Source of the DNA: an uncultured cyanobacterium
GTDB lineage: Bacteria; Cyanobacteriota; Cyanobacteriia; Phormidesmidales; Phormidesmidaceae
Length of the DNA: 64,000 nucleotides
Direction of reading: 5' to 3'
NCBI GenBank assembly: GCA_963793265.1
Contig: CAWBZI010000001.1
Span: 1,824,001-1,888,000, forward strand
Part shown: positions 5,393 through 8,300 of the stretch, piece by piece
Layout: every line of letters starts with the position of its first letter
Position numbering within the stretch: the first letter of the stretch is position 1
The notes under the pieces: model-generated
What the model was told of the DNA's origin: nothing
Seen by the model: the letters and a program-made list of their open reading frames with translations, nothing else
Databases searched by the model: none
Program-made: the position numbers and the translations under genes

Positions 5393-8300
5393 ATGGCCTC
5401 TCCCACGCCTGCTATTGTGCCATCCTTACAATCTCAGCTAGACCGCCTGCGCCTACTCAACACGCAAAATGTACAAACGCAATGGCACTGTCATGACCAA
5501 GACGTTAGCACCCATGAACTCTTCTGTATAAAGGCATCGCTAGCGCCACTCAATGACCGTTATCATATCGCTTGGGAGAAGGGCCTACAGGTACGCTGGC
5601 TCTACCAAACCATTACAGTTCCAACCGATATCAAAGGCTATCCGCTCACAGGATTGACGCTGCGCCTGGCGCTGACTTGGTGGGCTGATGATGCTCAGAT
5701 CTATGTCAATAGCACTCTCGCTCAATCCGGCGATCTGTTTGAATGCTTTGCCCGCATTTGCTTGAGCCATAGCGTCACGCCAGGAGATACTTTTCAGGTG
5801 GCTATTCGGTTAGTGAGCCCTGGACATGACGATGGGGCTTTGGTGCGATCGCAACTCATCTACGAACTCCCCAGCCAGCAGCCCACCCCCGAGCCCAGCT
5901 TCATAGCCGACGAACTCACCGTCCTAGCAACCCTCGAACCAAACCAACAACCCGCCATCGAGTCAGCACTTAATCAAGTCAACTGGAACAGCCTAGAAAG
6001 CGATGCAAGCCCTTCTGATGCCCTCGATATTTGGCATAACCTTTCTAGCACTGAAGCCCCTATTAAGGCCACTGTTCATCCTTTTCAACAATCTCTGAGC
6101 CAGCTACGCAGAACACTCATTCCACTATGTTCAAACATAAAAGAGAGAACTATCCATTGCGTCGGTCATGCCCACCTCGATATGGCGTGGCTATGGCCTA
6201 TTGCCGACACTTGGGAAGCCGCTGAGCGTACTTTCAGATCTGTTTTAGATCTTCAACAAGACTTTCCCGAGCTTACCTACACGCACTCTAGTCCAGCACT
6301 TTTTGAATGGATAGAGAACAATCGACCTAAGCTGTTCAAAGAGATTCAAACAAAGGTCGCTGAGGGCAGTTGGAGTATTGACGCTGGGCTGTGGATTGAA
6401 CCAGAGTTTAATATTATTGGCGGAGAGGCGATCGCCCGCCACATCCTCTACGGCCAGCGCTACTGCCAGGAAAAATTCGGTCAAATCAGCAGAATCGCTT
6501 GGCTCCCCGACTCCTTCGGCTTTTGCTGGCAGCTCCCCCAACTCCTCACTCAGGGCGGTATCGAAACCTTCGCCACCCTAAAACTCTCCTGGAACGATAC
6601 CACTGAGTTCCCCCACCAGCTCTTCTGGTGGCAATCCCCCGATGGTAGCCGCATCCTCAGCATCATGCTCCCCCCTATCGGCAGCGATATCGACCCTGTA
6701 AAGATGGCCGCTCATTCTCAAAAATGGAAAGAGAGTACAGGCACCCCCAATACGTTATGGCTTCCTGGCCTAGGCGACCACGGCGGTGGCCCCACCCGAG
6801 ACATGCTAGAAAAATCCGCCCGCTGGGAAAAATCCCCCTTCTTCCCACAGCTAAAATTCACAACCCCTAATACTTATATAGACACACTCCCTGTTACATC
6901 CTCCTCGCTTCCTACCTGGAATGATGAACTCTACCTCGAACTCCATCGCGGCTGCTACACCACTCACGCTGATCAAAAGCAGAGCAACCGGCAGTGCGAA
7001 GATCTCCTTTACCAGGCAGAAACTTTCGCCACTATCGCTCATCTCACAGCCGGTTATGCCTATCCCAAAACAGAGATAGATATAGCGTGGAAGACTCTAT
7101 TGTTCAACCAATTTCACGACATTCTACCAGGGACTTCTATTCCTGAAGTTTTTGTAGAAGCTAATCAAGGATGGGAACAGATCAAGCAGGTTGGGCAAAA
7201 GATATTGGATGAGAGTTTGGGGGCGATCGCTTCCGCTATCCACCTACCATCACCACCTCATCTAGAAGCCACACCCATCCTTGTTTTCAACTCACTTTCT
7301 TGGCCAAGAGACAGCGTAGTCACCTTCGATTTATCAAGCATCGACCCCAAAAAGACTCACCTTGATTGGATCATTTACGACCCAGAACAACAAACTATTC
7401 CTAACCAAAACAGCCCTGAACTACCAAATAAAGACGCCCCACATCAAGTCTCTTTTCTAGCCTCAAATATTCCTGCGCTAGGCTATAAGTGCTACTGGAT
7501 TCAACGCAGCCAAACACCTATCGATGCACCCCACCAAGCGGAATATATCCTCGAAAACAAATTTCTCAAGGCGCGCATCAGTTCACATACCGGACAGATC
7601 ACCAGCCTCATAGAAAAAAGTACACAAAGAGAAGCCTTCAGTGCACCTGGTAATCAGCTACAGCTCTTCCGCGACCATTGCGGCTATTGGGACGCGTGGA
7701 ACATAGCCGCAGAATACGAAGAGTACCCCCTTCCTGAACCACAACTCTTTTCTATTGCATGGCATGAAACCGGCCCTATCCAGCAGTGCATACGCACCGT
7801 TTACAAGACAGAAGGATCTACTATCTGCCAGGACTACGTATTGAACGTAGATTCACCTTTTCTTACCGTCAAAAACACTATTCTCTGGAAAGAAACCCAA
7901 GCTCTACTAAAAGTAAACTTCCCGCTAGCCATTTCATCCGATATAGCAACCTACGAAGTACCCTTTGGATCTATTGCAAGAACGACCAAACCCCAAACCG
8001 AAGCTGAAAAAGCGCAGTGGGAAGTGCCTGCTCTACGTTGGGCCGATATGGGAGACAAAGGCTTCGGCGTTAGCATATTGACACAAGGTAAACATGGTTT
8101 TGACGCTAGCCATAATCATTTGAGACTCACTCTACTCAAGTCTCCAGTATGGCCAGATCCAGAAGCCGATCGAGGAAACCACCATTTCACCTACGCTATC
8201 TATCCTCATCCTGGAACCTGGCAAACAGCCCGAACCGTTCAACGAGCCCGAGAATTTAATACTCCACCTGTCGTTTATCGACCACGAAAAGCCGAAGGAA

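Follow-up and report, generated by a model that had tools for sequence, protein, structure and literature searches.

HIP1 is a methylated palindrome that was first described three decades ago and, to our knowledge, is without an established function after 30 years. The closest described system is the model of Elhai (PMC4390886), which resembles the present case in the element itself and in the postulated strand-directed repair from HIP1, with an orphan C5-methyltransferase present in the genome analysed here. The parts of that paper drawn on here describe only palindromic extensions of 1-2 nt, whereas the flanks analysed here carry a gradient over 100-200 nt. In the transformation data considered from a preprint on PCC 7002 (10.1101/2024.09.10.611283), a homologous HIP1 site led to ~100-fold more transformation, independently of addAB. 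A search of the literature found no published description of a G/C flip in the flanks of HIP1.

We analysed HIP1 as the palindromic octamer GCGATCGC in a window of 64 kb (the whole stretch of DNA under study), in the whole genome, labelled G000, and in a survey comprising G000 and 38-200 kb from each of 23 other genomes. With 78 copies in the window versus 1.44 expected, the octamer is hyper-abundant; the 5.68 Mb genome contains 6,888 copies at a spacing of ~820 nt. Congeners conserve HIP1 at 132 of 232 aligned G000 sites (57%) at a mean identity of 73.5%, which predicts ~8.5% by chance (0.735 to the 8th power); the element is thus conserved beyond background identity. HIP1 has a frame preference, and its flanks show a 3-nt periodicity.

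The focal octamer GCGATCGC (7223..7230) is located around codon 610 of a GH38 alpha-mannosidase gene on the + strand (5393..8605, ORF call and Pfam), the product of which contains the Pfam domains Glyco_hydro_38N, Alpha-mann_mid, Glyco_hydro_38C and Glyco_hydro38C2. This octamer is the pivot of a composition flip on the + strand: its 5′ arm (7123..7222) is G-rich and C-poor, with G minus C of +17 over 100 nt and 13G/1C in the nearest 30 nt, and its 3′ arm (7231..7330) is C-rich and G-poor, with values of -25 and 1G/15C. Read on the - strand towards HIP1, the latter arm is G-rich. The same gene carries two further HIP1 sites with a flip, 5845..5852 (G minus C over 100 nt +8 upstream/-33 downstream) and 6428..6435 (+19/-14). 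Other sites with a flip were located at 4308..4315 (+10/-23), 20957..20964 (+35/-9), 31010..31017 (+22/-14) and 39088..39095 (+21/-16), and in a minus-strand response-regulator/GGDEF gene at 49983..49990 (+8/-24; 12G/6C upstream and 2G/17C downstream over 30 nt). At 15175..15182 the upstream arm is strong and the downstream arm weak (+23/-2), and at 58413..58420, near the end of an N6/N4 DNA-methylase gene, the upstream arm alone is skewed (16G/1C), the downstream arm being unskewed (6G/7C). The hand counts made in the first-pass annotation at 7223, 49983 and upstream of 58413 were reproduced exactly by our recount. Its statement that many sites share the pattern describes the window well, since the antisymmetric GC skew over 100 nt was positive at 66 of 77 scorable HIP1 sites compared with 49% of 5,000 random window positions, but its ten examples had been picked by eye and rank high among these 77 (1, 3, 9, 15, 14, 13, 17, 4, 16 and 27).

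A genome-wide profile of 6,885 HIP1 sites, calculated over all positions and independently of gene calls, revealed upstream/downstream GC skews of +0.358/-0.359 at 0-5 nt, +0.180/-0.187 at 10-20 nt, +0.107/-0.117 at 40-50 nt, +0.060/-0.083 at 75-100 nt and +0.023/-0.041 at 150-200 nt. At 4-fold degenerate sites the decay was exponential with a length of ~80 nt. The per-site median was +0.124 at HIP1 and -0.001 at random positions, the whole distribution being shifted and unimodal; a repeat family or a subset of sites as the source of the signal was rejected on this ground. The skew is specific for HIP1: within 10-50 nt it amounted to +0.154, versus -0.006 (sd 0.020) for 48 other palindromic octamers with at least 100 copies each. 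It was flat around CGATCG outside HIP1 (+0.002, n=1,217) and around GATC alone (-0.005, n=19,127), and chance HIP1 octamers in non-cyanobacteria gave -0.007 ± 0.005 (n=416). Of 142 shorter palindromes at a distance of more than 300 nt from HIP1, possible targets of the other methyltransferases of this genome included, not one exceeded +0.021 or was rated positive. Half-sites of the form GCGATCG[AGT] (n=375) showed no skew in either flank at 10-50 nt, the values being +0.017 (5′) and +0.015 (3′). The octamer GTGATCGC, the expected product of m5C deamination, retained a skew of +0.122/-0.123 (n=434); the skew persists at sites that have decayed by 1 nt. Three refutation tests had been set beforehand. 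The antisymmetric skew is present in the all-site average; the control octamers, CGATCG-only and GATC-only sites do not equal it, being flat; and the signal is not lost at synonymous positions, where it grows. The G-rich 5′/C-rich 3′ flip at HIP1 is thereby confirmed as real and HIP1-specific.

The skew is dominated by neutral positions. The largest values of all position classes were found at 4-fold sites (+0.42/-0.45 at 10-30 nt), codon positions 1 and 2 stayed below this level and showed the smallest values of all classes, and intergenic DNA reached +0.12/-0.15, about one third of the 4-fold amplitude. In the 5′ arm, G at 4-fold sites rose from 0.29 to 0.44-0.47 and C fell from 0.28 to 0.11-0.12, T was steady at 0.24-0.25 and A decreased by just 0.01-0.02; G+C was nearly constant (0.57 to 0.60). 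The accompanying rise of the purine content from 0.48 to 0.62 means that transversions are needed. At 2-fold sites, C/(C+T) changed from a baseline of 0.48 to 0.25-0.33 5′ of HIP1 and to 0.61 on the 3′ side, and G/(A+G) from 0.53 to 0.65-0.67 and to 0.34-0.40, respectively; these shifts have the same sign and size as those at 4-fold sites. Of the flip from G/T to C/A described in the first-pass annotation, the G/C part holds, but the T/A part is weak (TA skew near HIP1 ~±0.04-0.06) and the T fraction at 4-fold sites is unchanged. The neighbour context was irrelevant (delta ln G/C 0.63-0.86 for each of the 8 contexts), and none of the oligomers in HIP1 flanks was enriched. Protein composition follows the bias: valine accounts for 7.95% of residues in the 20 codons before HIP1 versus 6.16% after it, threonine for 5.19% versus 6.64%. 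The bias is strong enough to reshape proteins, and it affects synonymous codon choice across about one fifth of the genome, which is of consequence for analyses of codon usage, selection and horizontal transfer in cyanobacteria.

It had been argued earlier that the flip occurs in genes on either strand and that transcription does not explain it. The conclusion stands, as arms on the mRNA-5′ and mRNA-3′ sides were equally strong at 4-fold sites (e.g. +0.453 versus +0.461 at 12-21 nt) and a transcription-associated asymmetry is thereby rejected, but the argument itself is uninformative because the palindrome and strand symmetry force both the antisymmetry and its presence on either strand. What is informative is the mere excess of G over C 5′ of HIP1, together with the equality of the two arms relative to the mRNA. 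A replication-associated skew was rejected likewise: 50-kb windows displayed no replichore pattern, and the correlation of arm strength with regional skew was r=0.003. An extended palindrome or REP-like hairpin was discarded as well, the complementarity of arms of the same site being 0.255 at 11-40 nt compared with 0.257 after shuffling. At distance 1, complementarity was 0.193, below the shuffled value of 0.278.

Comparison of orthologous positions revealed that the skew depends on HIP1. At 172 positions with HIP1 in one genome only, it was +0.107 with the site and +0.023 without it (paired difference +0.084 ± 0.011). The HIP1-less orthologs differed according to the number of octamer mismatches, with -0.009 at three or more (n=109) and +0.113 at one (n=35). 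Conserved HIP1 sites were more strongly skewed (0.172 ± 0.012) than non-conserved ones (0.122 ± 0.015). Among the 24 genomes surveyed, the skew was found in 16 and reversed in none, and some HIP1-rich genomes were without it. In genome G017 the density is 2.9 sites per kb (n=579), yet the skew is +0.002 ± 0.005, and HIP1 alone is therefore insufficient. On plasmids, pAQ7 of PCC 7002 showed a weak skew (+0.033 ± 0.011, n=217); the alpha plasmid of PCC 7120 (+0.003 ± 0.028, n=42) and pSYSM of PCC 6803 (-0.029 ± 0.026, n=32) have too few sites to call. The nearest genomes compared share only 64-78% DNA identity, so that synonymous sites are saturated. Excess 4-fold identity near HIP1 was ~0.18 ± 0.013 versus 0.207 ± 0.006, and with the low power of near-saturated sites this allows a local rate at most ~10% higher; a large change in synonymous divergence was not seen. 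Eight of 38 variants listed were located within 60 nt of HIP1 versus ~18% expected, a comparison of low power; the 40 of 183 rows listed for this check are too few for a spectrum.

Proteins that might act at HIP1 were searched by domain. Neither the Vsr endonuclease (PF03852) nor a MutH-type nickase (PF02976) was found in any of 5 genomes; control genomes were positive for Vsr, and an unrelated analogue of MutH is possible. MutS domain I (MutS_I) was present in 24 of 24 genomes and MutL (MutL_C) in 5 of 5, skew-less genomes included. A broken MutS frame in G098 was dismissed as the cause of its weak skew, being probably recent or an assembly error. G000 contains 8 matches to the C5-cytosine methyltransferase family PF00145, of which the conserved one is an orphan; its neighbours are a subtilase and a PIN/RelB pair, and no nuclease is adjacent. 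A skew at z of at least 2.5 was found in 13 of 16 genomes with a C5-methyltransferase match, compared with 3 of 8 lacking one; G042 and G054 were scored as lacking it from a protein query only. The methyltransferase as a requirement looked clean at 14 and then at 20 genomes and failed a within-family test; G210 (+0.078 ± 0.021) and G080 (+0.047 ± 0.011) are skewed without a PF00145 match. A full-length ortholog of the enzyme as predictor was also given up, as G127 lacks it and has a skew of +0.136. Searched at the protein level with this methyltransferase, a plasmid collection gave non-cyanobacterial plasmids only among the 15 of 1,893 records listed. Y-family polymerases (PF00817) occurred in 12 of 24 genomes and did not track the skew: G000 and G009, both strongly skewed, had no match, and all five members of the low- or no-skew families f6 and f25 (G017, G096, G039, G042, G054) had one.

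We compared one-parameter models of the base changes, with an HKY baseline assumed. A filter in which G is favoured and C disfavoured in the 5′ arm described 6 of 6 datasets at an rmsd of 0.004-0.010, that is, 2-9 times better than damage models (0.017-0.064), among them deamination alone (0.022-0.064). On the 3′ arm the shift takes the log-additive form "C up, G down, A and T neutral". The equilibrium of the filter would also be reached by a mutational process that raised every rate towards G and away from C.

In our opinion, a strand-polar DNA process anchored at HIP1 probably produces these flanks. In this respect the first-pass annotation, which had suggested a mutational footprint of a DNA transaction directed by HIP1, agrees with a signal that acts at the DNA level, is tied to HIP1 and is strongest at neutral sites. 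As its specific form we favour short, strand-polar tracts of gene conversion or excision that start at HIP1 and pass through a mismatch filter, a plausible reading that falls just short of probable. On each strand, the stretch 3′ of HIP1 would be handled unlike the 5′ stretch, with an exponential reach of ~80 nt, and changes to C or from G would be preferentially retained on the 3′ side (equivalent to changes to G or from C on the 5′ side). The strand may be opened at HIP1 and then, in the 5′→3′ direction, excised or exchanged for a homologous strand, the source of which could be another chromosome copy or transforming DNA, and mismatch recognition of the MutS/MutL type would inspect the resulting short heteroduplex. 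If mismatches with G (G/T, G/G, G/A) were recognised and rejected more readily than those with C (C/A, C/C, C/T), a new G on the incoming strand would be rejected, as would the replacement of a resident C because the partner of C is G, and a new C or the replacement of a resident G would be accepted. The net effect would be a gene conversion whose bias differs between the strands. We infer four elements of this scheme, namely the nick, the mismatch hierarchy, the participation of a heteroduplex and the 5′→3′ direction. Studies of E. coli MutS and of the pneumococcal Hex system point to such an order of recognition, with A/A recognised better than T/T. For pneumococcus, PMC3375284 describes a hierarchy at the level of markers.

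Several observations stand against this explanation. With this order of recognition T should slightly exceed A on the 3′ arm, and a slight excess of A was observed. No enzyme opening HIP1 was found among the domains searched (Vsr 0/5, MutH 0/5), the half-sites GCGATCG[AGT] are unskewed (n=375), and differences between lineages are not accounted for, MutS and MutL being present also in skew-less genomes. The low intergenic amplitude needs extra assumptions, e.g. constraint or turnover.

Nascent-strand mismatch repair of the type considered by Elhai has the same geometry and sign as polar gene conversion. In this model, which we consider unlikely, the new strand would be nicked at hemimethylated HIP1 after replication and excised 5′→3′, replication errors on that strand would be removed only 3′ of HIP1, and each arm would inherit the errors of one strand. 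The general presence of MutS (24/24) and MutL (5/5) is compatible with it, as is the tendency of C5-methyltransferases to accompany the skew (13/16 versus 3/8), and a G-m5C-directed MutH analogue at HIP1 is proposed in the sections consulted of Elhai 2015 (PMC4390886). However, the raw polymerase spectrum, which the uncorrected strand would supply, is expected to consist mostly of C>T and A>G changes, a deamination-like pattern that gave a poor fit (rmsd 0.022-0.064), and a reach of 80 nt from sites ~820 nt apart would leave most of the genome uncovered. MutH was found in 0 of 5 genomes, G210 and G080 are skewed without a PF00145 match, and half-sites offering one G-m5C context lack a one-sided skew (n=375).

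The first-pass annotation had proposed nicking at HIP1 followed by resection, with C→T and A→G deamination of the exposed strand. The polarity is that expected for entry at HIP1 and a subsequent 5′→3′ process, but a nicking enzyme was not found in the genomes searched, and the deamination part is not supported: it predicts that in the 5′ arm T goes up and A down, where T was flat and A changed by 0.01-0.02. Widened to a nick or break at HIP1, 5′→3′ resection and 3′ single-stranded tails that are damaged or filled in by error-prone synthesis (C>N, A>G), the model seems to us quite unlikely. The polarity matches the asymmetry of C>N and A>N on resected tails in the data drawn from PMC7615360, neutral sites are strongest, and a rate ~10% higher is allowed. 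Against these points, damage fits 2-9 times worse and wrongly predicts the changes of T and A, a signature of neighbour context is missing, Y-family polymerases do not track the skew, and the rate shows no large increase in a comparison of low power.

Selection would act if HIP1 worked better with a G-rich strand ending 3′ at the site, e.g. as a recombination or DNA-uptake signal, and would drive free positions to G on the 5′ side and to C on the 3′ side; this, too, we hold to be quite improbable. RecA prefers G/T-rich single strands, which would suit such a role, the pattern resembles a fixation bias, and conserved sites are more skewed. Recombination is promoted by HIP1 in PCC 7002 according to the results used here from 10.1101/2024.09.10.611283. 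However, very weak selection would have to act on hundreds of flanking positions at every one of 6,888 sites, and neither a motif nor an oligomer is enriched. Intergenic DNA should respond most freely, yet only codon positions 1 and 2 show a smaller effect; decayed GTGATCGC sites stay skewed, and HIP1-rich skew-less genomes keep HIP1.

It is very unlikely that cause and effect are reversed, with HIP1 arising or being co-created where a flip from G-rich to C-rich DNA already exists. Lineage-specific HIP1 sites are already at +0.10-0.12, and octamers one step away are fully skewed in the genome without the site (n=35), which fits a late gain or an early loss. Positions at which the octamer has at least 3 differences, examined at the same place in the gene, gave -0.009 ± 0.012 (n=109); moreover, conserved sites are more skewed, CGATCG and half-sites are unskewed, and we know of no process that creates such flips independently of HIP1. 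An artefact of codon usage, frame preference, gene calling, a repeat family or an extended palindrome was tested and rejected and is extremely improbable, for even though a frame preference and a 3-nt flank periodicity exist, the all-position signal is independent of gene calls, the distribution shift is unimodal, the arms are not complementary in register, orthologous positions without HIP1 lack the signal and intergenic DNA has it.

Returning to polar gene conversion, we suggest tentatively that HIP1 may be the start of short-patch, strand-polar gene conversion with a mean tract of ~80 nt, which would homogenise the multiple chromosome copies that cyanobacteria carry and integrate transforming DNA and, being mismatch-filtered, would write a skew of G versus C and not of G+C. 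The flank gradient is a quantitative footprint obtained from sequence alone, giving a polarity, a scale of ~80 nt and a base rule by which C is favoured and G disfavoured on the 3′ arm. If the explanation is true, the activity of HIP1, the tract length and the polarity could be read from this gradient in the genome of any lineage. With HIP1 abundant, the footprint may be strong, weak or absent depending on the lineage, which amounts to a natural experiment, and the question of HIP1 function turns into testable predictions for mutants in mismatch repair, recombination and methylation.

Compared with the model of Elhai, the C5-methyltransferase appears to be dispensable here, half-sites are silent and heteroduplex filtering fits better. 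Human meiotic double-strand-break hotspots (Hinch et al. 2023, PMC7615360) show, in the results drawn on here, a similar mirror-image asymmetry with a polarity that follows the 3′ tail, and C>G and A>G are prominent there. These hotspots act on a kilobase scale with a raised mutation rate, and translesion polymerases are implicated in the same source, whereas the scale at HIP1 is ~80 nt, a clear rise in rate is not seen, G000 is without a Y-family polymerase and damage fits are poor. Hex in pneumococcal transformation, as far as the portion of PMC3375284 used here describes it, is alike in that the fate of a donor-strand heteroduplex is set by the kind of mismatch. Hex, however, concerns markers in laboratory transformation; it is not known to have an anchoring sequence or a polarity, nor to have had a skew of genomes ascribed to it. 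Chi is likewise an over-represented, recombination-stimulating octamer, and HIP1 is called Chi-like in the text consulted of 10.1101/2024.09.10.611283. Chi is asymmetric, oriented with replication and acts via RecBCD or AddAB, whereas HIP1 is palindromic, methylated and, by the PCC 7002 data of that text, addAB-independent. Replication GC skew is also a strand asymmetry of G versus C that switches sign at a defined point, but it has 1-2 switch points per replicon on a megabase scale, compared with 6,888 local flips on an 80-nt scale. GC-biased gene conversion is similar in its link to recombination, its fixation-like behaviour, its maximum at neutral sites and a strength sufficient to shift amino-acid content; in its classical form it lifts G+C on both strands, whereas the bias at HIP1 is polar, G versus C, and leaves G+C nearly constant.

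HIP1, the highly iterated palindromic octamer GCGATCGC, occurs 78 times in the window compared with 1.44 expected copies, and 6,888 times in the source genome G000 (5.68 Mb, 7 contigs). The first-pass annotation had described sequence rich in G/T before HIP1 and rich in C/A after it. Its hand counts at positions 7223, 49983 and 58413 were matched exactly by a recount; the ten sites it named rank 1 to 27 of 77, i.e. among the strongest, and the polarity is general in the window, being found over 100 nt at 66 of the 77 scorable sites versus 49% of random positions. The RNA genes of the rRNA operon at 9202–14465 on the minus strand (5S, 23S, two tRNAs, 16S) are free of HIP1, as is the entire interval 7231–15174, the remainder of the window carrying about 1.2 sites per kb. 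A gene for an N6/N4 DNA methylase (PF01555; 57434–58468, plus strand) has a HIP1 site close to its 3′ end. At 18379–18423, around the HIP1 at 18388–18395, contigs of three metagenome runs lose their match within about 30 nt and continue with unlike sequence; either a variable junction or a repeat could explain this. A single weak joint (side 23) connects 16263, just past the HIP1 at 16254–16261, to 18379. A repeat of about 270 bp at about 40938–41215 resembles a small mobile element or a miniature one: contigs C1, C2, C4 and C7 carry copies of it at 94–97% identity, and copies that have diverged further occur elsewhere.

Averaged over 6,885 sites of the genome, GC skew upstream/downstream of HIP1 was +0.358/-0.359 at 0–5 nt, +0.180/-0.187 at 10–20 nt, +0.107/-0.117 at 40–50 nt, +0.060/-0.083 at 75–100 nt and +0.023/-0.041 at 150–200 nt. 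The G/C part of the described flip is thus borne out by the all-site average, the T/A part being weak (TA skew about +0.03 to +0.05/-0.04 to -0.08). As HIP1 is palindromic and the genome strand-symmetric, antisymmetry of the averaged skew is automatic; the informative result is that G exceeds C on the 5′ side of HIP1 on either strand. The distribution of sites shifts as a whole (median +0.124 vs -0.001). At 10–50 nt, HIP1 gave +0.154 and 48 other palindromic octamers present in 100 copies or more gave -0.006 (sd 0.020); the lone outlier, ATCGCGAT (+0.094), is explained by overlapping tandem HIP1, which yields this octamer. CGATCG outside HIP1 (+0.002, n = 1,217) and GATC alone (-0.005, n = 19,127), both named beforehand as controls, showed no such effect, and none of 142 palindromes of 4–7 nt located more than 300 nt from HIP1 exceeded +0.021. 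Chance octamer copies in non-cyanobacterial contigs gave -0.007 ± 0.005 (n = 416).

Restriction to synonymous positions preserved the skew, as 4-fold degenerate sites carry the largest values: +0.42/-0.45 at 10–30 nt, +0.22/-0.26 at 50–100 nt and +0.09/-0.14 at 100–200 nt, based on our own ORF and codon-usage calls (4,896 genes, 87% coding). A single-exponential fit to this profile gave an amplitude of 0.52 and a length of 79.5 nt. Intergenic positions responded more weakly (+0.12/-0.15, about a third of the 4-fold response). Arms 5′ and 3′ of HIP1 in the mRNA are equal in strength and transcription direction is therefore irrelevant, as had been proposed. Arm strength and regional GC skew were uncorrelated (r = 0.003), and no replichore pattern was found in this genome, hence no replichore contrast for the HIP1 skew. 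Hairpins, extended palindromes and repeat families were ruled out, because in-register complementarity between the arms is no higher than after shuffling (0.255 at 11–40 nt vs 0.257). The bases at -1/+1 of HIP1 in G000 are complementary less often than by chance (0.193 vs 0.278 for shuffled partners), so that a 10-bp palindrome is disfavoured; on plasmid pAQ7 of PCC 7002, in contrast, 135 of 218 sites are GGCGATCGCC.

The per-site antisymmetric GC skew at 10–60 nt was determined in 38–200 kb from each of 23 other genomes. It was +0.103 to +0.140 in all four genomes of the same genus, and +0.136 (G127), +0.078 (G210), +0.047 (G080) and +0.024 (G098) in further members of family group f1. Nine genomes of other families (G058, G037, G040, G022, G019, G049, G065, G072 and G028) gave +0.040 to +0.084; values for G096 (+0.025 ± 0.013) and G020 (+0.021 ± 0.013) were not significant, and G039, G042, G054 and G017 (+0.002 ± 0.005, n = 579, at 2.9 HIP1 per kb) had no skew. 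Including G000, 16 of 24 genomes reached z ≥ 2.5 and none was significantly negative; some HIP1-rich lineages lack any flank skew. Fifteen loci of named cyanobacteria gave a pooled value of +0.059 ± 0.009 (n = 338), with +0.09 to +0.125 in Leptolyngbya sp. CCNP1308, Nostoc sp. XA013, Tychonema bourrellyi and one Oscillatoriales MAG, and pAQ7 gave +0.033 ± 0.011 (n = 217). For PCC 7120 alpha and PCC 6803 pSYSM, 50-kb samples are too small for a decision on skew either way. G015 (L026–L032) carries 6 HIP1 in 140 kb versus 178 copies of an alternate highly iterated palindrome, GGGATCCC; no C5-methyltransferase match and no flank skew at this palindrome (-0.006 ± 0.011) were found there.

Vsr and MutH were found in none of five genomes searched, MutL in all five and MutS domain I in all 24. 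A Y-family polymerase, present in 12 of 24 genomes with none found in G000, did not track the skew. In a first pass, a C5-methyltransferase (PF00145) was present in all nine genomes with skew of at least +0.05 and absent from five others, four of which lack significant skew; two more genomes without it were likewise flat. Used as a predictor fixed beforehand from a class-wide survey and then tested, it failed for two methyltransferase-negative relatives, which nonetheless have significant skew, and G127, without the conserved ortholog, is skewed as strongly as G000. The enzyme therefore does not appear to be a requirement; its presence goes with the skew as a tendency (z ≥ 2.5 in 13 of 16 genomes with a match vs 3 of 8 without; Mann-Whitney p 0.004, related genomes not being independent and absence in G042 and G054 resting on protein query only). 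The conserved methyltransferase of G000 (L147:3412–4836, contig C4) is an orphan whose neighbours are a subtilase and a PIN/RelB pair. It has homologues of 48–56% identity on small (4–5 kb) Klebsiella plasmids and a 12-kb Paracoccus plasmid, and of 54% on a 1.6-Mb Sinorhizobium megaplasmid. In G098, which has the weakest skew in f1, the MutS frame is broken in a T-run (L146, G098:C31:98901–100100) at the conserved GDF-x-E stretch, the motif that contacts the mismatch. Downstream, an 848-aa frame remains open, and the break may be a homopolymer assembly error.

At 4-fold sites of the 5′ arm, the share of G goes up from 0.29 to 0.44–0.47 and that of C down from 0.28 to 0.11–0.12, T remains steady at 0.24–0.25, A drops by 0.01–0.02, and purine content increases from 0.48 to 0.62. 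At 2-fold sites, C/(C+T) changes from 0.48 to 0.25–0.33 on the 5′ side and 0.61 on the 3′ side, and G/(A+G) moves the opposite way. In log-odds, G gains about 0.5 against A and C loses about 0.5 against T, A versus T being nearly unchanged. The shift does not differ among the eight neighbour contexts, and no enriched oligomer was found. In about 1.2 Mb of HIP1 arms of G000, GGACC occurs 4 times and GGTCC twice; this near-absence suggests that GGWCC is strongly avoided, as it would be under a restriction system.

The first-pass annotation had attributed the polarity to nicking at HIP1, 5′→3′ resection and deamination. Its geometry fits, since entry at HIP1 followed by a 5′→3′ process on the same strand is the simplest way to the observed polarity; its chemistry does not. 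Among one-parameter models over an HKY baseline (transition share 73/84, from metagenome-contig variants), a filter favouring G and disfavouring C reached an rmsd of 0.004–0.010 in six of six datasets, compared with 0.022–0.064 for deamination only. A strand newly inserted on the 3′ side of HIP1 would be screened by mismatch recognition, with G-containing mismatches rejected more readily than C-containing ones; this would leave C up, G down, and A and T neutral on 3′ arms. Such a hierarchy is known from work on E. coli MutS and pneumococcal Hex. If the heteroduplex arose by gene conversion or transformation, a pure filter would result. A preprint (10.1101/2024.09.10.611283) reports that HIP1 promotes recombination in PCC 7002 independently of addAB. 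Base rule, geometry and HIP1-linked recombination together place polar conversion with mismatch filtering first, a tentative choice that we consider a little short of an even chance. Repair of the nascent strand during replication, directed from HIP1, shares the filter, but in this version raw errors of the other strand would come on top unfiltered, with a spectrum akin to the poorly fitting deamination pattern; such repair appears unlikely. Single-strand damage is rather improbable: C damage only gave an rmsd of 0.027–0.058 and C>N plus A>N 0.017–0.053; a richer mutational model in which every rate into G and every rate out of C is raised would be indistinguishable from the filter. Selection is as improbable as single-strand damage.

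The flank bias extends to protein content, with Val, Met, Glu and Gly up in the 20 codons preceding HIP1 and Thr, Asn, Ile, Pro and His in the 20 following; codon positions 1 and 2 respond weakest (about ±0.05–0.09 about their baselines). Reverse causality, with skewed flanks giving rise to sites, is very unlikely. In 192 kb from four congeners aligned to G000 (mean identity 73.5%), 132 of 232 G000 sites are conserved, and these exceed unconserved ones at 10–60 nt (0.172 ± 0.012 vs 0.122 ± 0.015) and at 60–150 nt (0.077 vs 0.038). At 172 aligned positions with HIP1 in one genome only, skew was +0.107 ± 0.011 with the site and +0.023 ± 0.011 without (paired difference +0.084 ± 0.011); in the HIP1-less genome it was +0.113 (n = 35), +0.037 (n = 28) and -0.009 (n = 109) for octamers with one, two and three or more mismatches to HIP1. 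Orthologous presence/absence and the mismatch series thus argue that the skew is a property of HIP1, not of gene or protein context, and would fade gradually after site loss. The commonest one-off variant, GTGATCGC, the expected deamination product of the methylated cytosine of HIP1, retains +0.122/-0.123 (n = 434); CGATCG half-sites without one terminal base have no skew (n = 375). An artefact is barely credible.

Excess identity between congeners at 4-fold sites, by our own pooling of distance bins, was about 0.18 ± 0.013 at 10–100 nt from a HIP1 present in both genomes and about 0.207 ± 0.006 at greater distance, compatible with a substitution rate higher by at most about 10% near HIP1, a bound derived from near-saturated sites. 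Metagenome contigs from a population 0.42% diverged contained 84 variants in 20 kb; eight of 38 variants among those listed (40 of 183 rows) lay within 60 nt of HIP1, about 18% being expected.

No description of the flank skew was found in the open full-text literature, outside which lies subscription-only work (e.g. Robinson et al. 1995, 1997); the accessible main texts of Elhai 2015, Xu et al. 2018 and a 2026 GBE paper hold no account of skew, flank or asymmetry, and their supplements could hold one. For pneumococcal Hex, a marker-level mismatch hierarchy is described in PMC3375284. Human meiotic break hotspots (PMC7615360) are a documented analogue of the geometry proposed for HIP1.
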